Positions 1,285-7,130 of a stretch of DNA of 7,736 nucleotides are shown here, in pieces (the stretch's first letter is position 1; every line of letters begins with the position of its first letter). The position numbers were made by a program, and so were the translations under genes. Below the pieces are notes generated by a model, which saw nothing but the letters and a program-made list of their open reading frames with translations, had not been told where the DNA came from and did no database searches. The stretch lies in the IMG/VR virus record IMGVR_UViG_648276645_000001; one strand, 5' to 3'. This DNA is from a virus (lineage: Duplodnaviria > Heunggongvirae > Uroviricota > Caudoviricetes).

Positions 1285-1330
1285 AGGTTGCTCCGGGCTA
1301 TGAAATAGAAAAATGAATCCGTTGAAGCCT

Positions 1331-1345
1331 GCTTTTTTATACTAA
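1331..1345. other. attL core (15-bp common core O of lambda site-specific recombination) at the host/prophage junction
   Basis: Exact GCTTTTTTATACTAA at 1331-1345. Left flank (gaagcct) reads like the bacterial B arm; right flank (gttggcattataaaaaagcattgc...) reads like the lambda P' arm, giving the BOP' arrangement. Confidence 0.9.
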
Positions 1346-1370
1346 GTTGGCATTATAAAAAAGCATTGCT

Positions 1371-1422
1371 TATCAATTTGTTGCAACGAACAGGTCACTA
1401 TCAGTCAAAATAAAATCATTAT
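1371..1422. promoter_or_regulatory. P' arm protein-binding sites: IHF site H' and three Int arm-type sites P'1-P'3
   Basis: TATCAATTTGTTG at 1371-1383 fits the IHF consensus WATCAANNNNTTR. Three consecutive arm-type-like decamers: caggtcactat (1391-1401), cagtcaaaat (1402-1411), aaaatcattat (1412-1422). Last site overlaps the int stop codon as in lambda. Confidence 0.75.
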
Positions 1423-2489
1423 TTGATTTCAATTTTGTCCCACTCCCTGCCTCTGTCATCACGATACTGTGATGCCATGGTGTCCGACTTATGCCCGAGA
1501 AGATGTTGAGCAAACTTATCGCTTATCTGCTTCTCATAGAGTCTTGCAGACAAACTGCGCAACTCGTGAAAGGTAGGCGGATCCCCTTCGAAGGAAAGAC
1601 CTGATGCTTTTCGTGCGCGCATAAAATACCTTGATACTGTGCCGGATGAAAGCGGTTCACGACGAGTAGATGCAATTATGGTTTCTCCGCCAAGAATCTC
1701 TTTGCATTTATCAAGTGTTTCCTTCATTGATATCCCGAGAGCATCAACATGCAATGTTGTTGGGATGGCAATTTTTACGCCTGTTTTGCTTTGCTCGACA
1801 TAAAGATATCCATCTACGATATCAGACCACTTCATTTCGCATAAATCACCAACTCGTTGCCCGGTAACAACAGCCAGTTCCATTGCAAGTCTGAGCCAAC
1901 ATGGTGATGATTCTGCTGCTTGATAAATTTTCAGGTATTCGTCAGCCGTAAGTCTTGATCTCCTTACCTCTGATTTTGCTGCGCGAGTGGCAGCGACAGG
2001 GTTTGTTGTTATATGGCCTTCAGCTATTGCCTCTCGGAATGCATCGCTCAGTGTTGATCTGATTAACTTGGCTGACGCCGCCTTGCCCTCGTCTATGTAT
2101 CCATTGAGCATTGCCGCAATTTCTTTTGTGGTGATGTCTTCAAGTGGAGCATCAGGCAGACCCCTCCTTATTGCTTTAATTTTGCTCATGTAATTTATGA
2201 GTGTCTTCTGCTTGATTCCTCTGCTGGCCAGGATTTTTTCGTAGCGATCAAGCCATGAATGTAACGTAACGGAATTATCACTGTTGATTCTCGCTGTCAG
2301 AGGCTTGTGTTTGTGTCCTGAAAATAACTCAATGTTGGCCTGTATGGCTTCAGTGATTGCGATTCGCCTGTCTCTGCCTAATCCAAACTCTTTACCCGTC
2401 CTTGGGTCCCTGTAGCAGTAATATCCATTGTTTCTTATATAAAGGTTAGGGGGTAAATCCCGGCGCTCATGACTTCGCCTTCTTCCCAT
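1419..2489 (-). CDS. int: Integrase (lambda Int, tyrosine recombinase)
   Basis: 356-aa ORF starting MGRRRSHERRDLPPNLYIRNNGYYCYRDPRTGKEF, which I recognise as lambda Int. Catalytic-region motifs present (HELRSL...R, HLLGHKSDTMASQYRDD with the Tyr nucleophile). Sits next to attL and overlaps xis by 23 bp as in lambda. Confidence 0.97.
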   Translation of the reverse strand: MGRRRSHERRDLPPNLYIRNNGYYCYRDPRTGKEFGLGRDRRIAITEAIQANIELFSGHKHKPLTARINSDNSVTLHSWLDRYEKILASRGIKQKTLINYMSKIKAIRRGLPDAPLEDITTKEIAAMLNGYIDEGKAASAKLIRSTLSDAFREAIAEGHITTNPVAATRAAKSEVRRSRLTADEYLKIYQAAESSPCWLRLAMELAVVTGQRVGDLCEMKWSDIVDGYLYVEQSKTGVKIAIPTTLHVDALGISMKETLDKCKEILGGETIIASTRREPLSSGTVSRYFMRARKASGLSFEGDPPTFHELRSLSARLYEKQISDKFAQHLLGHKSDTMASQYRDDRGREWDKIEIK

Positions 2490-2685
2490 TTCTGATCCTC
2501 TTCAAAAGGCTACCTGTTACTGGTCGATTTAAGTCAACCTTTACCGCTGATTCGTGGAACAGATATTCTCTTCCATCCTTAACCGGAGGAGGGAATATCC
2601 TGCATTCGCGCACCCATCGACGAACTGTTTCAAGGCTTCTTGGGCGTCGCTGGCGAGCGTTCCACTCCTGAAGTGTCAAGTACAT
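2467..2685 (-). CDS. xis: Excisionase (lambda Xis)
   Basis: 72-aa ORF MYLTLQEWNARQRRPRSLETVRRWVRECRIFPPP..., recognised as lambda Xis; 3' end overlaps the int start. Confidence 0.95.
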   Translation of the reverse strand: MYLTLQEWNARQRRPRSLETVRRWVRECRIFPPPVKDGREYLFHESAVKVDLNRPVTGSLLKRIRNGKKAKS

Positions 2686-2711
2686 CGCAAAGTCTCCGCA
2701 ATTACACGCAA
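2670..2711 (-). promoter_or_regulatory. pI-like promoter (cII-activated int promoter) with TTGC-N6-TTGC cII-binding repeats
   Basis: Minus strand reads TTGCGTGTAATTGCGGAGACTTTGCGATGTACTTGACA. TTGC tetrads at 2708-2711 and 2698-2701 (plus coordinates), overlapping the xis start as in lambda pI. Boundaries approximate. Confidence 0.6.
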
Positions 2712-2733
2712 GAAAAAACCGCCATCAGGCGGC
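2711..2733 (-). terminator. Putative intrinsic terminator hairpin (GC stem with 4-nt loop, then a T6 run on the minus strand)
   Basis: Minus strand CCGCC-TGAT-GGCGG followed by TTTTTT. Stem is only 5 bp. Overlaps the orf55 stop and sits just upstream of the pI -35 region. Lambda counterpart not certain (possibly a tL-series terminator). Confidence 0.4.
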
Positions 2734-2892
2734 TTGGTGTTCTTTCAGTTCTTCAATTCGAATATTGGTTATGTCTGCATGTGCTATCTGCGCCCATATC
2801 ATCCAGTGGTCGTAGCAGTCGTTGATGTTCTCCGCTTCGATAACTCTGTTGAATGGCTCTCCATTCCATTCTCCTGTGACTCGGAAGTGCAT
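2725..2892 (-). CDS. Small hypothetical protein (lambda orf55-like), 55 aa
   Basis: Not in the supplied ORF track (under 60 aa). Hand translation of the minus strand gives MHFRVTGEWNGEPFNRVIEAENINDCYDHWMIWAQIAHADITNIRIEELKEHQAA. Size and position (about 40 bp upstream of xis) match the small ORF annotated between xis and ea8.5 in lambda. Confidence 0.65.
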   Translation of the reverse strand: MHFRVTGEWNGEPFNRVIEAENINDCYDHWMIWAQIAHADITNIRIEELKEHQAA

Positions 2893-2980
2893 TTATCATC
2901 TCCATAAAACAAAACCCGCCGTAGCGAGTTCAGATAAAATAAATCCCCGCGAGTGCGAGGATTGTTATGTAATATTGGGT

Positions 2981-3262
2981 TTAATCATCTATATGTTTTG
3001 TACAGAGAGGGCAAGTATCGTTTCCACCGTACTCGTGATAATAATTTTGCACGGTATCAGTCATTTCTCGCACATTGCAGAATGGGGATTTGTCTTCATT
3101 AGACTTATAAACCTTCATGGAATATTTGTATGCCGACTCTATATCTATACCTTCATCTACATAAACACCTTCGTGATGTCTGCATGGAGACAAGACACCG
3201 GATCTGCACAACATTGATAACGCCCAATCTTTTTGCTCAGACTCTAACTCATTGATACTCAT
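2981..3262 (-). CDS. ea8.5: Ea8.5 protein (lambda early accessory protein, Cys/His-rich)
   Basis: 93-aa ORF MSINELESEQKDWALSMLCRSGVLSPCRHHEGVYVDEG...CPLCTKHIDD, recognised as lambda Ea8.5. AAGGAG RBS 7 nt upstream on the minus strand. Confidence 0.9.
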   Translation of the reverse strand: MSINELESEQKDWALSMLCRSGVLSPCRHHEGVYVDEGIDIESAYKYSMKVYKSNEDKSPFCNVREMTDTVQNYYHEYGGNDTCPLCTKHIDD

Positions 3263-3453
3263 TTATAAACTCCTTGCAATGTATGTCGTTTCAGCTAAAC
3301 GGTATCAGCAATGTTTATGTAAAGAAACAGTAAGATAATACTCAACCCGATGTTTGAGTACGGTCATCATCTGACACTACAGACTCTGGCATCGCTGTGA
3401 AGACGACGCGAAATTCAGCATTTTCACAAGCGTTATCTTTTACAAAACCGATC

Positions 3454-3765
3454 TCACTCTCCTTTGATGCGAATGCCAGCGTCAGACATCATATGCAGAT
3501 ACTCACCTGCATCCTGAACCCATTGACCTCCAACCCCGTAATAGCGATGCGTAATGATGTCGATAGTTACTAACGGGTCTTGTTCGATTAACTGCCGCAG
3601 AAACTCTTCCAGGTCACCAGTGCAGTGCTTGATAACAGGAGTCTTCCCAGGATGGCGAACAACAAGAAACTGGTTTCCGTCTTCACGGACTTCGTTGCTT
3701 TCCAGTTTAGCAATACGCTTAACAGAAAGGCCGGGAAATACCCAGCCTCGCTTTGTAACGGAGTA
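3454..3765 (-). pseudogene. ea22: ea22 C-terminal fragment (5'-truncated); fused in frame to antisense O sequence, giving a 179-aa chimeric ORF (3454..3993)
   Basis: C-terminal ~90 codons (KRIAKLESNEVREDGNQFLVVRHPGKTPVIKHC...DAGIRIKGE) read as real protein and lie 192 bp from ea8.5, the lambda spacing. The N-terminal ~90 codons (MFVRSSFGLLAVTTACCLLRL...) are low-complexity and are the reverse strand of O coding sequence. Upper boundary is approximate (junction between about 3720 and 3772). Confidence 0.65.
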
Positions 3766-3766
3766 G

Positions 3767-4021
3767 ACGAAAGTGATCGCACCTAACGATATCCGCCTGA
3801 TGCGTGAACGTGACGGACGTAACCACCGCGACATGTGCGTGCTGTTCCGCTGGGCCTGCCAGGACAACTTCTGGTCCGGTAACGTGCTGAGTCCGGCCAA
3901 ACTCCGCGACAAGTGGACCCAGCTCGAAATCAACCGTAACAAGCAACAGGCAGTCGTGACAGCCAGCAAACCAAAACTCGACCTGACAAACACAGACTGG
4001 ATTTACGGGGTGGATCTATGA
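3767..4021 (+). pseudogene. O: Replication initiator O, C-terminal fragment only (P-interaction domain); N-terminus and ori absent
   Basis: Open frame begins just after an in-frame TAG at 3764-3766. Translation ...IAPNDIRLMRERDGRNHRDMCVLFRWACQDNFWSGNVLSPAKLRDKWTQLEINRNKQQAVVTASKPKLDLTNTDWIYGVDL matches my memory of the lambda O C-terminus. Stop overlaps the P start (ATGA). No ori iterons or AT-rich region upstream. Confidence 0.85.
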
Positions 4022-4719
4022 AAAACATCGCCGCACAGATGGTTAACTTTGACCGTGAGCAGATGCGTCGGATCGCCAACAACATGCCGGAACAGTACGA
4101 CGAAAAGCCGCAGGTACAGCAGGTAGCGCAGATCATCAACGGTGTGTTCAGCCAGTTACTGGCAACTTTCCCGGCGAGCCTGGCTAACCGTGACCAGAAC
4201 GAACTGAACGAAATCCGCCGCCAGTGGGTGCTGGCTTTCCGGGAAAACGGGATCACCACAATGGAACAGGTTAACGCAGGAATGCGCGTAGCCCGTCGGC
4301 AGAATCGACCATTTCTGCCATCACCCGGGCAGTTTGTTGCATGGTGCCGGGAAGAAGCATCCGTTATCGCCGGACTACCAAACGTCAGCGAGCTGGTTGA
4401 TATGGTTTACGAGTATTGCCGGAAGCGAGGCCTGTATCCGGATGCGGAGTCTTATCCGTGGAAATCAAACGCGCACTACTGGCTGGTTACCAACCTGTAT
4501 CAGAACATGAGGGCCAATGCGCTTACTGATGCGGAATTACGCCGTAAGGCCGCAGATGAGCTTGTCCATATGACTGCGAGAATTAACCGTGGTGAGGCGA
4601 TCCCTGAACCAGTAAAACAACTTCCTGTCATGGGCGGTAGACCTCTAAATCGTGCACAGGCTCTGGCGAAGATCGCAGAAATCAAAGCTAAGTTTGGGCT
4701 GAAAGGAGCAAGTGTATGA
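4018..4719 (+). CDS. P: Replication protein P (DnaB helicase loader)
   Basis: 233-aa ORF MKNIAAQMVNFDREQMRRIANNMPEQYDEKPQVQQVAQIINGVFSQLL..., recognised as lambda P with the lambda length; translationally coupled to O' and ren. Confidence 0.96.
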   Translation: MKNIAAQMVNFDREQMRRIANNMPEQYDEKPQVQQVAQIINGVFSQLLATFPASLANRDQNELNEIRRQWVLAFRENGITTMEQVNAGMRVARRQNRPFLPSPGQFVAWCREEASVIAGLPNVSELVDMVYEYCRKRGLYPDAESYPWKSNAHYWLVTNLYQNMRANALTDAELRRKAADELVHMTARINRGEAIPEPVKQLPVMGGRPLNRAQALAKIAEIKAKFGLKGASV

Positions 4720-5006
4720 CGGGCAAAGAGGCAATTATTTATTACCTGGGGACGCATAAGAGCTTCTGTGCGCAGGACGTTGCCGCGGTAACAGGCGCAA
4801 CAGTAACCAGCATAAATCAGGCTGCGGCTAAAATGGCACGGGCAGGTCTTCTGGTTATCGAAGGTAAGGTCTGGCGAACGGTGTATTACCGGTTTGCTAC
4901 CAGGGAAGAACGGGAAGGAAAGATGAGCACGAACCTGATTTTTAAGGAGTGTCGCCAGAGTGCCGCGATGAAACGGGTATTGGCGGTATATGGAGTTAAA
5001 AGATGA
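4716..5006 (+). CDS. ren: Ren protein (protects against Rex exclusion)
   Basis: 96-aa ORF MTGKEAIIYYLGTHKSFCAQDVAAVTGATVTSINQAAAKMARAGLLVIEGK..., lambda Ren-like. AAGGAG RBS at 4699-4704; start overlaps the P stop. Confidence 0.92.
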   Translation: MTGKEAIIYYLGTHKSFCAQDVAAVTGATVTSINQAAAKMARAGLLVIEGKVWRTVYYRFATREEREGKMSTNLIFKECRQSAAMKRVLAVYGVKR

Positions 5007-5030
5007 CCATCTACATTACTGAGCTAATAA

Positions 5031-5066
5031 CAGGCCTGCTAGTAATCGCAGGCCTTTTTATTTGGG
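5031..5066 (+). terminator. Rho-independent terminator, lambda tR2-like
   Basis: 8-bp stem AGGCCTGC (5032-5039) pairing with GCAGGCCT (5048-5055), 8-nt loop, followed by TTTTTATTT. Located between ren and ninB, where tR2 sits in lambda. Confidence 0.8.
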
Positions 5067-5079
5067 GGAGAGGGAAGTC

Positions 5080-5520
5080 ATGAAAAAACTAACCTTTGAA
5101 ATTCGATCTCCAGCACATCAGCAAAACGCTATTCACGCAGTACAGCAAATCCTTCCAGACCCAACCAAACCAATCGTAGTAACCATTCAGGAACGCAACC
5201 GCAGCTTAGACCAAAACAGGAAGCTATGGGCCTGCTTAGGTGACGTCTCTCGTCAGGTTGAATGGCATGGTCGCTGGCTGGATGCAGAAAGCTGGAAGTG
5301 TGTGTTTACCGCAGCATTAAAGCAGCAGGATGTTGTTCCTAACCTTGCCGGGAATGGCTTTGTGGTAATAGGCCAGTCAACCAGCAGGATGCGTGTAGGC
5401 GAATTTGCGGAGCTATTAGAGCTTATACAGGCATTCGGTACAGAGCGTGGCGTTAAGTGGTCAGACGAAGCGAGACTGGCTCTGGAGTGGAAAGCGAGAT
5501 GGGGAGATCGGGCTGCATGA
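5080..5520 (+). CDS. ninB: NinB (Orf-family recombination mediator)
   Basis: 146 aa from ATG 5080 (MKKLTFEIRSPAHQQNAIHAVQQILPDPTKP...), lambda NinB-like with matching length. RBS GGGAGAGGGAAG upstream. The track ORF from 5062 uses an upstream TTG that I regard as not the real start. Confidence 0.92.
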   Translation: MKKLTFEIRSPAHQQNAIHAVQQILPDPTKPIVVTIQERNRSLDQNRKLWACLGDVSRQVEWHGRWLDAESWKCVFTAALKQQDVVPNLAGNGFVVIGQSTSRMRVGEFAELLELIQAFGTERGVKWSDEARLALEWKARWGDRAA

Positions 5521-6044
5521 CTATCAAATCAAATACGCCAGCACACGACAAGGACTGCTGGCAAACGCCGCTTTGGCTTTTTGATGCACTGGATATTGAG
5601 TTTGGATTCTGGCTGGATTCGGCAGCGAGCGACAAAAATGCTCTGTGTGCTCACTGGCTAACTGAGGCCGACGACGCGCTCAATTCTGAGTGGGTAAGCC
5701 ACGGTGCAATCTGGAATAACCCACCGTACAGCAATATCAGGCCGTGGGTGGAAAAAGCCGCTGAGCAGTGCATACAACAGCGACAGACGGTAGTGATGCT
5801 TGTGCCAGAGGATATGTCAGTCGGATGGTTCAGCAAGGCTCTGGAGAGTGTCGACGAAGTTCGCATTATCACTGATGGACGGATTAATTTTATCGAACCA
5901 TCGACGGGGCTGGAGAAGAAGGGAAACAGCAAAGGCTCCATGCTGCTGATTTGGCGACCGTTCATCAGTCCTCGACGGATGTTTACTACCGTATCCAAAG
6001 CGGCATTGATGGCGATCGGGCAGGGCGTCAGGAGGGCGGCATGA
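5517..6044 (+). CDS. Phage-type DNA N6-adenine methyltransferase (Dam family, orphan)
   Basis: 175 aa from ATG 5517, overlapping the ninB stop (ATGA): [34 protein letters not shown]... Contains the NPPY motif (WNNPPYSN) typical of N6-adenine methyltransferases. Occupies the position held by ninC in lambda. No restriction endonuclease gene nearby. Confidence 0.85.
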
Positions 6045-6217
6045 GGCGACAGCGACGAAGTTTCACCGACATCATCTGCGAAAACTGCAAATACCTTCCA
6101 ACGAAACGCTCCAGAAATAAACGCAAGCCAATCCCAAAAGAATCTGACGTAAAAACCTTCAATTACACAGCTCACCTGTGGGATATCCGGTGGCTAAGAT
6201 ATCGTGCGAGGAAATGA
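6041..6217 (+). CDS. ninE: NinE
   Basis: 58 aa from ATG 6041: [58 protein letters not shown], lambda NinE-like. GGAGGG RBS at 6031-6036; start overlaps the methyltransferase stop. Confidence 0.85.
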
Positions 6218-6219
6218 CA

Positions 6220-6561
6220 ATGGATTATTCACAGTTAAGTGATTTTGAAATTAACAGAATGGTAGGAGACATAATTTTTAAAGGCCTTTGGGCAAGTAAA
6301 CCGGAAACATCAGGGAATAACACCAACAAATGGTATTACGGAAATGCTGATACAACTTTTGAGCCATTAAATCATTTGCCTGACTACTGCAATGATCCGA
6401 GCGCTTCATGGCCGATTATTGAGAAATACAGGATTTCTATCTTAGACCAGTTAACTGAATGGTGTGTGGATGCAAAAGGCGTAAGCCCAATATTTGATAC
6501 CAGACCTCTCCGCGCCGCCATGATTGTCTTTCTCCTGATGCAGGAGGCCAATAATGCTTAG
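6220..6561 (+). CDS. Hypothetical nin-region phage protein, 113 aa (possibly DUF2591-like; function unknown)
   Basis: [116 protein letters not shown]. Start chosen at ATG 6220 because GAGGAA (6208-6213) is 6 nt upstream; the ATG at 6214 abuts the RBS. Family assignment is from memory only. Confidence 0.6.
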
Positions 6562-6748
6562 CCCATCTCAATCCCTTCAATACCTGAAAGGAAGCATAGA
6601 GCGGGCTTCAATGTGCACAGAGTGGATTCTATCTAGGTTTAGCGCATACAGAAGATTGCCGGTAAAGGGCATGCCAAGCAAGTCGATGCTGCATATGCAA
6701 AAGAATGCGCGCTGGAAGGTATGGCGAGAACACAGGTTATCTGGCTGA
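6554..6748 (+). CDS. NinF-like small protein with a divergent C-terminus (mosaic), 64 aa
   Basis: Strong AGGAGG RBS at 6542-6547, 6 nt before the ATG. First ~20 residues ([18 protein letters not shown]) resemble the NinF N-terminus I recall from lambdoid phages. The remainder ([46 protein letters not shown]) lacks the Cys-rich motif of NinF. Overlaps the preceding ORF by 8 bp. Confidence 0.5.
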
Positions 6749-6767
6749 AAGAGGGGGTTATTAAGGC

Positions 6768-7130
6768 GTGAATACCTACAGCATCACATTACCCTGGCCT
6801 CCGAGCAATAACCGCTACTACCGGCATAATCGCGGGCGCACGCACATCAGCGCAGAAGGGCAGGCATACCGTGATAACGTCGCCCGAATCATTAAAAACG
6901 CAATGCTGGATATCGGCCTGGCTATGCCTGTGAAAATCCGCATTGAGTGCCACATGCCGGATCGCCGTCGCCGTGACCTGGATAATCTGCAAAAAGCCGC
7001 TTTTGACGCACTCACTAAAGCAGGTTTCTGGCTGGATGATGCTCAGGTCGTTGATTACCGCGTTGTGAAGATGCCTGTTACCAAAGGTGGGAGGCTGGAA
7101 CTGACCATCACCGAAATGGGGAATGAATGA
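6768..7130 (+). CDS. rusA: RusA Holliday-junction resolvase (endodeoxyribonuclease RusA)
   Basis: 120-aa ORF with GTG start: [97 protein letters not shown]..., recognised as RusA of the DLP12/phage-82 type. RBS AGAGGGGG upstream. Confidence 0.92.

Follow-up and report, generated by a model that had tools for sequence, protein, structure and literature searches.

The prototype of the Pfam family PF10765 is NinX of phage P22 (P22gp57, NP_059615), a protein of 112 aa whose gene lies between ninE and ninF and runs 8 nt into ninF. In intact lambdoid phages the nin genes belong to the delayed-early pR operon and are transcribed once N has brought about antitermination. Phage lambda itself is without ninX and its ninE directly abuts ninF, which indicates that ninX is dispensable. 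Solved structures of relatives by sequence or fold comprise 4QYB and 4PUP from Burkholderia cenocepacia, the former deposited as a disulfide-bridged dimer, and 1R7L, a prophage protein of ~110 aa from Bacillus cereus ATCC 14579 with an α/β/α sandwich fold, which we take to be the founder of Pfam PF18066 (Phage_ABA_S). All of these are labelled ‘uncharacterized’, and the literature found on NinX/DUF2591, 1R7L and 4QYB consisted of mentions in annotation tables, with no functional data.

The window analysed here, by which the whole stretch of 7,736 nucleotides is meant, carries an ORF at 6220–6561 in the same ninE/ninF slot as P22 ninX, with the same 8-nt overlap. Its product of 113 aa was 61% identical to P22 NinX; residues 1–15 and 55–113 were nearly identical, whereas a variable segment, V1 (residues ~16–54), had a distinct sequence in the P22 protein. 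Taking the evidence as a whole, the ORF is very probably ninX, a real, intact and non-essential accessory gene in the nin region of a lambdoid prophage. Since ninX is already a named and commonly annotated gene of lambda/P22-like phages, the copy in the window is an ordinary one, a routine gene in its expected place with nothing unusual about it.

Gene structure, neighbours and state of the prophage

The features of the window that bear on ninX are as follows.

5032–5055, plus strand: terminator-like hairpin and T-run between ren and ninB; 8-bp stem with six GC pairs, then TTTTATTT
6041–6217, plus strand: ninE, upstream neighbour of ninX (PF05322 NinE, 142.6 bits)
6208–6212, plus strand: Shine–Dalgarno-like GAGGA, 7 nt before ATG 6220 and inside the last ninE codons
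6220–6561, plus strand: ninX, coding for 113 aa and ending in TAG; its protein has 12.9 kDa and pI 4.5
6554–6748, plus strand: chimeric ORF of 64 aa, consisting of ninF codons 1–22 and then an out-of-frame run through the ybcO remnant
6643–6771, plus strand: 3′ remnant of ybcO (DUF1364, putative nuclease) in another frame, ending in a GTGA overlap with rusA
6768–7130, plus strand: rusA, Holliday-junction resolvase (PF05866, 82.1 bits; also rusA in the PGAP annotation), the first intact operon gene after ninX

Inspection of the sequence placed ATG 6220 in frame with the TAG at 6559–6561, giving 113 codons plus the stop. The mechanically called ORF is longer (GTG 6178, 127 aa), and some annotators have chosen GTG 6178 or GTG 6190 as the start; both were set aside and ATG 6220 was preferred, because the M-[DN]-Y N-terminus of the family starts there in 88% of 137 aligned homologues, the Pfam model begins there and the PGAP coding sequence is likewise 342 nt long. 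An RBS is annotated at the equivalent place in the record of Salmonella phage MG40. Two nucleotides separate the ninE stop (TGA, 6215–6217) from the ninX start, and the 3′ end of ninX shares 8 nt (6554–6561) with the following ORF, which starts at ATG 6554. Overlapping stop/start (ATGA) arrangements are typical of lambdoid nin regions (PMC8022706), a pattern that the packing of ninX fits, and from this tight packing we infer translational coupling of ninX to its neighbours. The product is soluble, acidic and single-domain. The GC content of ninX was 40.6%, compared with 50–53% in the flanking nin genes.

NinE directly preceded NinX in P22, MG40, UAB_Phi20 and HK544 and in 75 of 80 IMG/VR loci, and these phages and loci also shared the order ninE–ninX–ninF; the related loci, retrieved with the family alignment, were near-identical lambdoid loci only and serve for counts of synteny and not for diversity of context. 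The preliminary description had placed the ORF between ninE and a NinF-like gene. The upstream half of that statement was borne out, but the downstream ORF carries only a 22-codon stump of ninF: 16 of its first 22 residues were identical to the N-terminus of P22 NinF and similarity was absent thereafter. No Pfam family matched this 64-aa ORF, including NinF PF05810, which P22 NinF carries at residues 20–44. It is a recombination scar and not a NinF gene, and the same truncation was present in 35 of the 80 loci. The ybcO remnant covers positions 62–92 of the 92 in the PF07102 YbcO profile; being a fragment, it scores below the family cut-off (18.2 bits), and PGAP lists it as a pseudogene (‘DUF1364, missing N-terminus’).

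Beyond the lambdoid loci, PF10765 genes were inspected in eight unrelated phage contexts, where they always lay among runs of small same-strand ORFs and had no constant neighbour. A DUF551 gene adjoined the PF10765 gene in two contexts, too few for interpretation.

The prophage in the window has lost ~9 kb that carried N, cI, cro, pL and pR. No promoter-like site was found upstream of ninX at 3200–6219, nor was a terminator found after ninX, and a scan of the entire window with Rfam gave no RNA family. The hairpin at 5032–5055, whose position presumably corresponds to lambda tR2, is the only terminator-like site that the nin operon has ahead of ninX. Expression of ninX in situ is doubtful, and the gene is probably silent here because the prophage is without N and pR. 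The earlier view of ninX as probably expressed thus applies to the gene in intact phages and is doubtful for this window, where N and pR are lost and no promoter-like site was found at 3200–6219.

Family membership and conservation

The ninX product matched PF10765 with 62.1 bits against a gathering cut-off of 22.6, residues 2–108 aligning to positions 1–114 of the 114-position profile. This family, Phage_P22_NinX, was previously named DUF2591, so that the resemblance to DUF2591 suggested in the preliminary description proved to be full-length membership well above the cut-off; the names ‘DUF2591’ and ‘NinX family’ alternate among homologues in the databases. RefSeq/PGAP lists a ‘phage protein NinX family protein’ (WP_000386643.1) at the same coordinates, and the product was 100% identical to ‘Phage NinX’ of Escherichia phage ev243. 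It also matched phrog_444 (7.6e-44), labelled ‘unknown function’; no NCBIfam model matched it, and neither did any family among the PADLOC-DB defence models at E up to 1. The preliminary description had held that no function could be assigned from the sequence, and this agrees with the phrog_444 label and the annotation-only literature: the confident Pfam match is to a named family without characterised function.

Full-length homologues were found in 523 phage records, and among 5,426 complete E. coli genomes 607 had the window allele at ≥80% coverage. Comparison with phage MG40 gave nine synonymous and four non-synonymous differences (dN/dS = 0.10), and by this comparison of sequences ninX is under purifying selection. 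Together with the GAGGA site, the confirmed coordinates and the PF10765 match, these data corroborate the earlier judgement that a genuine gene with a good RBS and an 8-bp overlap is present. Conservation was strong in related prophages and in phages as well, and the general remark that nin regions collect accessory genes holds.

The PF10765 family comprises 2,132 clusters at 50% identity and has members in phages whose hosts include Enterobacteria, Vibrio and Burkholderia, with a phage or prophage location in every context inspected. Nearly all of the 150 representatives listed were single-domain from end to end and ~105–135 aa long, a few having short N-terminal extensions. Longer proteins (NinE+NinX, DUF1364+NinX, Q+NinX) and N-terminal extensions look like artefacts of start-codon choice or frameshifting in the packed nin region and were set aside. 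Conservation was assessed on an alignment of 137 enterobacterial and Vibrio-phage homologues, all of which themselves match PF10765. Their median length was 118.5 aa (5–95% range 104–134), their median net charge −7.3 and their median pI 4.64, with values below 5.5 in 90% and above 8 in none. Conservation reached 90% or more in 23 columns; the window protein departs from these in one, with S63 in place of A (a minority state, 4%), and keeps the other 22. It carries the family motifs: M-D/N-Y..S-D-F-E-I-N..V at the N-terminus, D-x-C-N-N-P-x-D-A-W-P-I-I in the centre and P-L-R-A-A-M-I-x-F-L-x-M at the C-terminus.

Predicted fold, conserved helices and variable cassettes

AF2 models were obtained for the window protein (pLDDT 86.9, pTM 0.80) and for a NinX relative, P0165 (pLDDT 90.7, pTM 0.84). 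Both predict an α/β/α sandwich with an identical order of elements: α1, β meander V1, α2, β meander V2, α3. Along the gene these elements fall into the following segments.

6220–6276, plus strand: codons 1–19, N-terminal segment and helix α1 (M-D-Y-S-x-L-S-D-F-E-I-N-x-x-V)
6277–6381, plus strand: codons 20–54, variable cassette V1 (column entropy >3 bits; pLDDT 59–72)
6382–6435, plus strand: codons 55–72, conserved motif and helix α2 (helix at 60–69, AF2)
6436–6504, plus strand: codons 73–95, variable cassette V2, a three-stranded β meander (hypervariable, with indels)
6505–6558, plus strand: codons 96–113, conserved helix α3 (helix at 96–112, AF2)

Helix α1 spans residues 8–19 of the AF2 model with pLDDT >90, and Y3, S7, D8, N12 and V15 were each at least 90% conserved in the 137 homologues. 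In the α2 segment conservation reached 99% for C57, 93% for N58, 94% for P60, 96% for W64 and 93–94% for P65–I67, and in α3 it was 97–99% for L97, R98, A100, M101, I102, F104 and L105. Cassette V1 formed a three-stranded β meander in the P0165 model (strands 25–29, 34–41 and 45–51); the strands of V2 were placed at 73–77, 80–85 and 88–93 in the window model, with pLDDT ~95. A β-clamp binding motif has the form QL[SD]LF, and ‘QLSDF’ (residues 5–9) was considered as a candidate; it was rejected, as position 5 is mostly D, E or K in the family and the segment is helix-N-cap-like.

The two cassettes varied separately. In homologues with a V1 82–100% identical to that of the window protein V2 was 8–30% identical, and the converse was also seen: P0012 had 100% identity in V1 and 26% in V2, whereas P0103 had 11% in V1 and 100% in V2. 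In P0078, a homologue from Salmonella whose V1 resembles that of P22, identity was 14% in V1 and 91% in V2. From these comparisons of sequence, V1 and V2 recombine independently on a near-invariant scaffold of three predicted helices. The near-invariance of the helices could simply mark the hydrophobic core, and the variability of the strands could be due to drift and recombination instead of specificity. In the Burkholderia branch, which still belongs to PF10765, C57 is replaced by S, W64 by G and R98 by I; with C57 and R98 replaced there, no polar residue is universal in the family. The conserved polar residues, found mainly at helix starts, look like N-capping positions as we read the motifs. 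Within the enterobacterial/Vibrio branch C57, N58, Y3 and R98 (93–99%) might form a branch-specific ligand-binding or active site.

The structure prediction and structural similarity search proposed in the preliminary description led to an ‘uncharacterized’ protein. In a Foldseek search 1r7l was the best solved match of the window model (TM 0.64/0.66, probability 1.00, rmsd 3.3 Å over 111 columns, both proteins aligned end to end), and the P0165 model also matched it (TM 0.57/0.66). The two proteins differ in sequence (15% identity) and 1R7L comes from a Gram-positive host; the window protein had no match to PF18066 at E up to 10, and 2 of the 137 homologues reached ~0.1. The P0165 model matched 4qyb as well (TM 0.61/0.63, probability 1.00), an entry that was not among the best 50 Foldseek matches of the window model itself. 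Searches of PDB sequences with the window protein and with the 137-sequence profile found nothing, and hhalign of the family profile against the 4QYB sequence was insignificant. The link of 4QYB to the family was reached solely through a Burkholderia phage homologue, gp38 of phage JC1 (PF10765, 66.7 bits), which matches 4QYB at 7.6e-12. The 4QYB sequence itself matches PF10765 over residues 8–124 with 59.6 bits and, on this sequence match, is a member of the family, albeit one distant from the window protein. Its equivalents of C57, W64 and R98 are S, G and I. With 4QYB/4PUP as NinX-family members, an experimental structure already exists for the family. The NinX family is very widespread in phages, is under purifying selection and has crystal structures, besides that of its fold relative 1R7L.

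A phmmer search aligned residues 59–106 to plant thioredoxin f at E = 0.04–0.2, the weak hits overall lying at E 0.04–2. This was rejected as a chance match, since there is no CxxC, the aligned ‘WCVDAK’ lies in the hypervariable V2 and Foldseek gave TM 0.14–0.16. The column of the aligned Cys82 is hypervariable as well, with C in 13% of sequences.

Possible roles of NinX

We tentatively infer that NinX is a binder of another macromolecule, most likely a protein of the host or of a competitor, and that it neither catalyses a reaction nor binds DNA nor has a dedicated genetic partner. This role is possible, although, with negative and circumstantial evidence behind it, it falls short of being probable. 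A standalone binder is favoured over an enzyme or a DNA binder because NinX is single-domain and acidic, has no constant neighbour and has no universal polar residue. NinX would act during lytic growth; the helices would provide a scaffold, and the swappable V1 and V2 cassettes would set the binding surface. It is conceivable, if rather unlikely, that NinX/DUF2591 constitutes an unrecognised class of modular counter-defence or host-takeover binders in which exchange of V1 and V2 through intragenic recombination sets which host or rival protein, or which signal molecule, they neutralise; in that case the window allele would represent a single V1/V2 pairing within a modular binder system. Lambda Gam, T7 Ocr and sponge-type proteins are likewise small, acidic, standalone and dispensable, lie in early or accessory regions and are spread among unrelated phages. 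The likeness of NinX to Gam, Ocr and the Tad/Acb sponges is one of functional analogy only, without similarity of sequence or fold. Two independently shuffling cassettes on an invariant helical scaffold provide a pointer for cassette-swap work and for a search for binding partners.

NinX might instead be a small-molecule ‘sponge’ or a thiol-dependent enzyme, with Y3, N12, C57, N58, W64 and R98 making up either an active site or a pocket that takes a nucleotide-like ligand. These residues are 93–99% conserved across the 137 homologues, PF10765 proteins are small, acidic and standalone, as are several known phage sponge proteins, and 4QYB crystallised as a dimer; sponges often bind their ligand at oligomer interfaces. 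However, the Burkholderia proteins have lost C57, W64 and R98 and still score 59.6–66.7 bits against PF10765, neither a His nor a second Cys is conserved among the 137 homologues, the conserved polar residues sit mostly at N-cap-like helix starts and the Foldseek matches to enzymes and nucleotide-binding proteins all had TM ≤0.3, and a sponge or enzyme appears improbable. There is also little likelihood that NinX is a nucleic-acid-binding recombination or replication factor. Such a role would be in keeping with the nin neighbours NinB/Orf, Dam, RusA/NinG and NinH and with the DNA-metabolism neighbours (ERF, DnaB, Prim-Pol, dUTPase) in several phages, and the predicted α1-(β3)-α2-(β3)-α3 order holds two β-β-β-α units, which could be used as in dsRBD, PUR or Whirly folds. 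Entries for dsRBD, PUR and MRP did occur low in the Foldseek list, but these matches were noise (TM 0.15–0.33, probability ≤0.16). The family is moreover acidic throughout, with the net charge and pI given above, and elsewhere its genes lie among tail or head genes or in moron-like islands, a DNA-metabolism neighbour never being constant.

A prophage-expressed ‘moron’ with its own transcription, benefiting the lysogen through superinfection exclusion or defence, would account for the low GC content of ninX relative to the flanking nin genes and for its being kept intact in a prophage remnant without an early region; in one siphovirus an Imm_superinfect gene adjoins the PF10765 gene. Against this stand the lack of a promoter-like site at 3200–6219 and of a terminator after ninX, the operon architecture, with ninX 2 nt after ninE and overlapping the next ORF, and the absence of a PADLOC match. 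Relatives by sequence or predicted fold furthermore turn up in isolated phages of many types; Vibrio phages account for 306 records, and sewage phages, seawater phages and large myoviruses also have them. The moron reading is highly improbable. That the ORF arose by chance, or is a decayed pseudogene without a product, might be suggested by the defective prophage and the adjacent gene scar, but this is refuted by the conservation data and can practically be discounted: the ORF encodes a full-length PF10765 member with a dN/dS of 0.10, its start is conserved and preceded by an RBS, and intact copies are carried by viable phages as well as by the 607 complete E. coli genomes.

Identity and start of ninX

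The ORF adjoining ninE was identified as ninX, an already named and routinely annotated gene; the observation made in the preliminary description was confirmed and its interpretation supported. The nin region around it comprised the following features.

5457-6044: gene for a Dam-type N6-adenine methyltransferase (PF05869, 217.8 bits), between ninB and ninE
5' neighbour of ninX: ninE (PF05322, 142.6 bits)
6220-6561 (+): ninX, from ATG 6220 to the in-frame TAG at 6559-6561, 113 codons plus stop
3' of ninX, in order: ninF start, YbcO remnant, rusA, ylcG, quuD
6643-6768: ybcO remnant in its true frame (PF07102 positions 62-92), ending in a GTGA overlap with rusA

The sequence GAGGA (6208-6212) lies 7 nt 5' of the ninX ATG, the TGA of the upstream gene (6215-6217) ends 2 nt ahead of it and the ATG of the downstream ORF (6554) creates an 8-nt overlap; the 113-aa ORF, ribosome-binding site (RBS) and 8-bp overlap reported earlier were all borne out by these coordinates. 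The mechanical ORF reaches back to GTG 6178 (127 aa), and three starts (6178, 6190 and 6220, giving 127, 123 and 113 aa) are found in public annotations. ATG 6220 was preferred because, in addition to the RBS, 88% of 137 aligned homologues have the family's M-[DN]-Y N-terminus beginning at this residue, the start of the Pfam model PF10765 coincides with it, and in other strains the PGAP annotation of RefSeq has the identical 342-nt CDS (WP_000386643.1). GTG 6178 and GTG 6190 were rejected, as the family alignment and the RBS favour ATG 6220.

The window protein matched PF10765 with 62.1 bits (gathering score 22.6) over profile positions 1-114 of 114; the DUF2591-like affiliation suggested in the preliminary description was correct, PF10765 being the former DUF2591. 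PHROG 444 ('unknown function') was matched at 7.6e-44, and no match was obtained with the protein in NCBIfam or PADLOC. The protein was found by tblastn in 526 phage records. Escherichia phage ev243 encodes a 100% identical copy annotated as 'Phage NinX', and the NinX proteins of several P22-like Salmonella phages are 95.6-96.5% identical to the window protein; identity to NinX of P22 itself is 61%. Relatives, recognized by sequence or predicted fold, are carried both by isolated phages of many types and by prophages.

That ninX is a genuine gene, as had been proposed, is supported by selection, prevalence and family size. Comparison with Salmonella phage MG40 gave nine synonymous and four non-synonymous differences (dN/dS 0.10). 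Of 5,426 complete E. coli genomes, 607 carried the window allele at >=80% coverage, and all of the matches listed bore the NinX family annotation. When 1.84 billion representative proteins were searched exhaustively with a profile, 2,132 clusters were recovered at E <=1e-3 and 1,419 at E <=1e-10; the 150 matches listed were nearly all single-domain proteins of ~100-137 aa, a few having short N-terminal extensions. No Rfam family overlapped the ninX region.

Variable segments and predicted fold

The product is a 12.9 kDa protein with a pI of 4.53 and a net charge of about -6. An AlphaFold2 model based on the 137-sequence alignment (mean pLDDT 86.9, pTM 0.80) comprised alpha1 (residues 8-19), alpha2 (60-69), strands 73-77, 80-85 and 88-93, and alpha3 (96-112), with lower confidence for residues 20-54 (pLDDT 59-72). 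In the model of a consensus-like relative, P0165 (pLDDT 90.7, pTM 0.84), the first variable region is also predicted as a three-stranded meander, and the overall modelled topology is alpha1-(beta3)-alpha2-(beta3)-alpha3. Conservation was strongest in the three helices, and residues conserved in >=90% of members were distributed as follows.

In and around alpha1: Y3, S7, D8, N12, V15
Around alpha2: C57, N58, P60, W64, P65, I66, I67
alpha3: L97, R98, A99, A100, M101, I102, F104, L105, M107

Two segments, V1 (aa 20-54; window 6277-6381) and V2 (aa 73-95; window 6436-6504), were hypervariable in both sequence and length. Relative to the window protein, the homologue P0012 was 100% identical in V1 and 26% in V2, P0103 was 11% identical in V1 and 100% in V2, and the P22-like P0078 was 14% identical in V1 and 91% in V2. 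V1 and V2 recombine and assort independently between near-invariant helices; partial megablast matches in other E. coli genomes to just the first 36 or 194 nt of ninX fit this mosaic picture.

The sole meaningful Foldseek match of the window model in the PDB was 1R7L, a structural-genomics 'phage protein' from Bacillus cereus, aligned end to end (TM 0.64/0.66, probability 1.00). The P0165 model again matched 1R7L and, in addition, 4QYB, an 'uncharacterized protein' from Burkholderia cenocepacia (TM 0.61/0.63). Matches among viral predicted structures were all 'uncharacterized protein', bar one named 'DUF2591 domain-containing protein'. Burkholderia phage JC1 gp38 has been described as DUF2591 (PMC9144972); this protein (L098:1531-1914) scored 66.7 bits on PF10765 and matched 4QYB and 4PUP at about 1e-11, and the 4QYB residues within that alignment themselves scored 59.6 bits. 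By sequence, 4QYB and 4PUP, both deposited as 'uncharacterized protein', are thus members of PF10765, and the NinX family already has crystal structures; no paper mentioning them was found in the library searched.

Likely role of NinX

No function for the family was found in the literature, where mentions were limited to annotation tables. Tentatively, NinX is regarded as a binder that acts on its own and without catalysis, its target being a macromolecule of the host or of a competitor during lytic growth; the helical core would serve as a scaffold, with V1/V2 giving the surface its shape. The other readings considered were all judged less probable than such a binder. One is a nucleic-acid binder, but family members are acidic throughout (median pI 4.64, 90% below 5.5 and none above 8), which speaks against DNA or RNA binding as the primary role. 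Another is a sponge or an enzyme using a Cys/Arg/Tyr cluster. The Burkholderia branch, still within PF10765, has C57 replaced by S, W64 by G and R98 by I; no polar residue is therefore universal, and this weighs against a catalytic site common to the family. Most of the conserved polar residues stand at helix starts (S7-D8-x-E10, N58/N59-P60-S61-D62 and, in most members, N95-P96) and, in our reading of the motifs, look like N-capping. A moron expressed in the lysogen was likewise rated below a lytic binder. Useful by-products of the analysis are the link of PF10765 to 4QYB/4PUP, the two-cassette mosaic of NinX and the recognition that its 'NinF-like' neighbour is a scar within a promoter-less prophage remnant.

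Neighbouring genes and the prophage remnant

The order ninE-ninX-ninF is common to P22, MG40, UAB_Phi20 and HK544 and was found in 75 of 80 IMG/VR loci with a close NinX homologue. In phage lambda, by contrast, ninE abuts ninF without ninX, which is therefore dispensable for a lambdoid phage; lambda also has ninC and ninD in place of the methyltransferase gene. The mechanical ORF of the latter begins at GTG 5457 inside ninB, but in relatives the annotated CDS is 528 nt long, corresponding to ~5517-6044. The GC content was 40.6% in ninX, 45.8% in ninE and 50-53% in P, ren, ninB, the Dam methylase gene and rusA; the low value for ninX is consistent with a separately acquired module.

Across eight unrelated phage contexts no partner gene recurred beside NinX. 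Its gene always lay within a run of small same-strand ORFs; in some phages this run was near replication or recombination genes, in others it was placed between structural modules or by an Imm_superinfect gene. A DUF551 gene directly adjoined NinX in an E. coli siphovirus (L005:5372-5569) and one E. coli prophage (NZ_AP042519), and lay ~2.4 kb away in a Vibrio phage (L006:7747-7974); DUF551 may be a recurrent neighbour, the cases being too few to judge.

The downstream gene described as NinF-like proved to be a gene scar. Only the first 22 residues of the 64-aa ORF at 6554-6748 are common with P22 NinF (16/22 identical), the NinF Pfam domain is absent from it, and the remainder is an out-of-frame read over the 3' end of ybcO (DUF1364), a remnant that PGAP annotates as a pseudogene. 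The scar is an old recombination join rather than decay peculiar to this prophage, because 35 of 80 related IMG/VR loci share it, phages ev243, ev099 and mEp332 have nin segments that align gaplessly with the window at ~99% identity, and the ev243 annotation passes from NinX to RusA without a gene between.

In intact relatives, ninX lies within the pR delayed-early operon. Overlapping stop and start codons (ATGA) are typical of lambdoid nin regions (PMC8022706); the packing of ninX fits this arrangement and suggests translational coupling to its neighbours.

The window prophage is a deletion remnant. Its left arm matches lambda 29083-30114 (end of xis, ea8.5 and the 3' part of ea22) up to 3721, and the right arm restarts at 3783, within the last ~240 nt of gene O; the ~9 kb carrying exo-bet-gam, N, cI, cro, cII, pL and pR is therefore absent. 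The 61 bp between the arms (3722-3782) match neither, and a 179-aa minus-strand ORF (3454-3993) appears to be an artefact because it spans this junction. The prophage sits at the lambda attachment site beside ybhC; within window 1300-4021, int, xis, ea8.5 and the 3' part of ea22 are joined to the end of gene O. Probable expression, as first proposed, holds for the gene family but is not secure for the window copy, given the loss of N and pR, the lack of a promoter-like site 5' of ninX within 3200-6219 and a terminator-like hairpin upstream of it at 5032-5055.

Among the 5,426 complete RefSeq E. coli genomes, the exact window arrangement was absent. The best E. coli match aligned as two pieces covering 94% of the window and carried an IS3 transposase at the position of the junction, and other E. 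coli genomes had IS1, IS5 or IS66 there; the presence of different elements at this point suggests that prophages at the site have been eroded repeatedly in association with IS elements.
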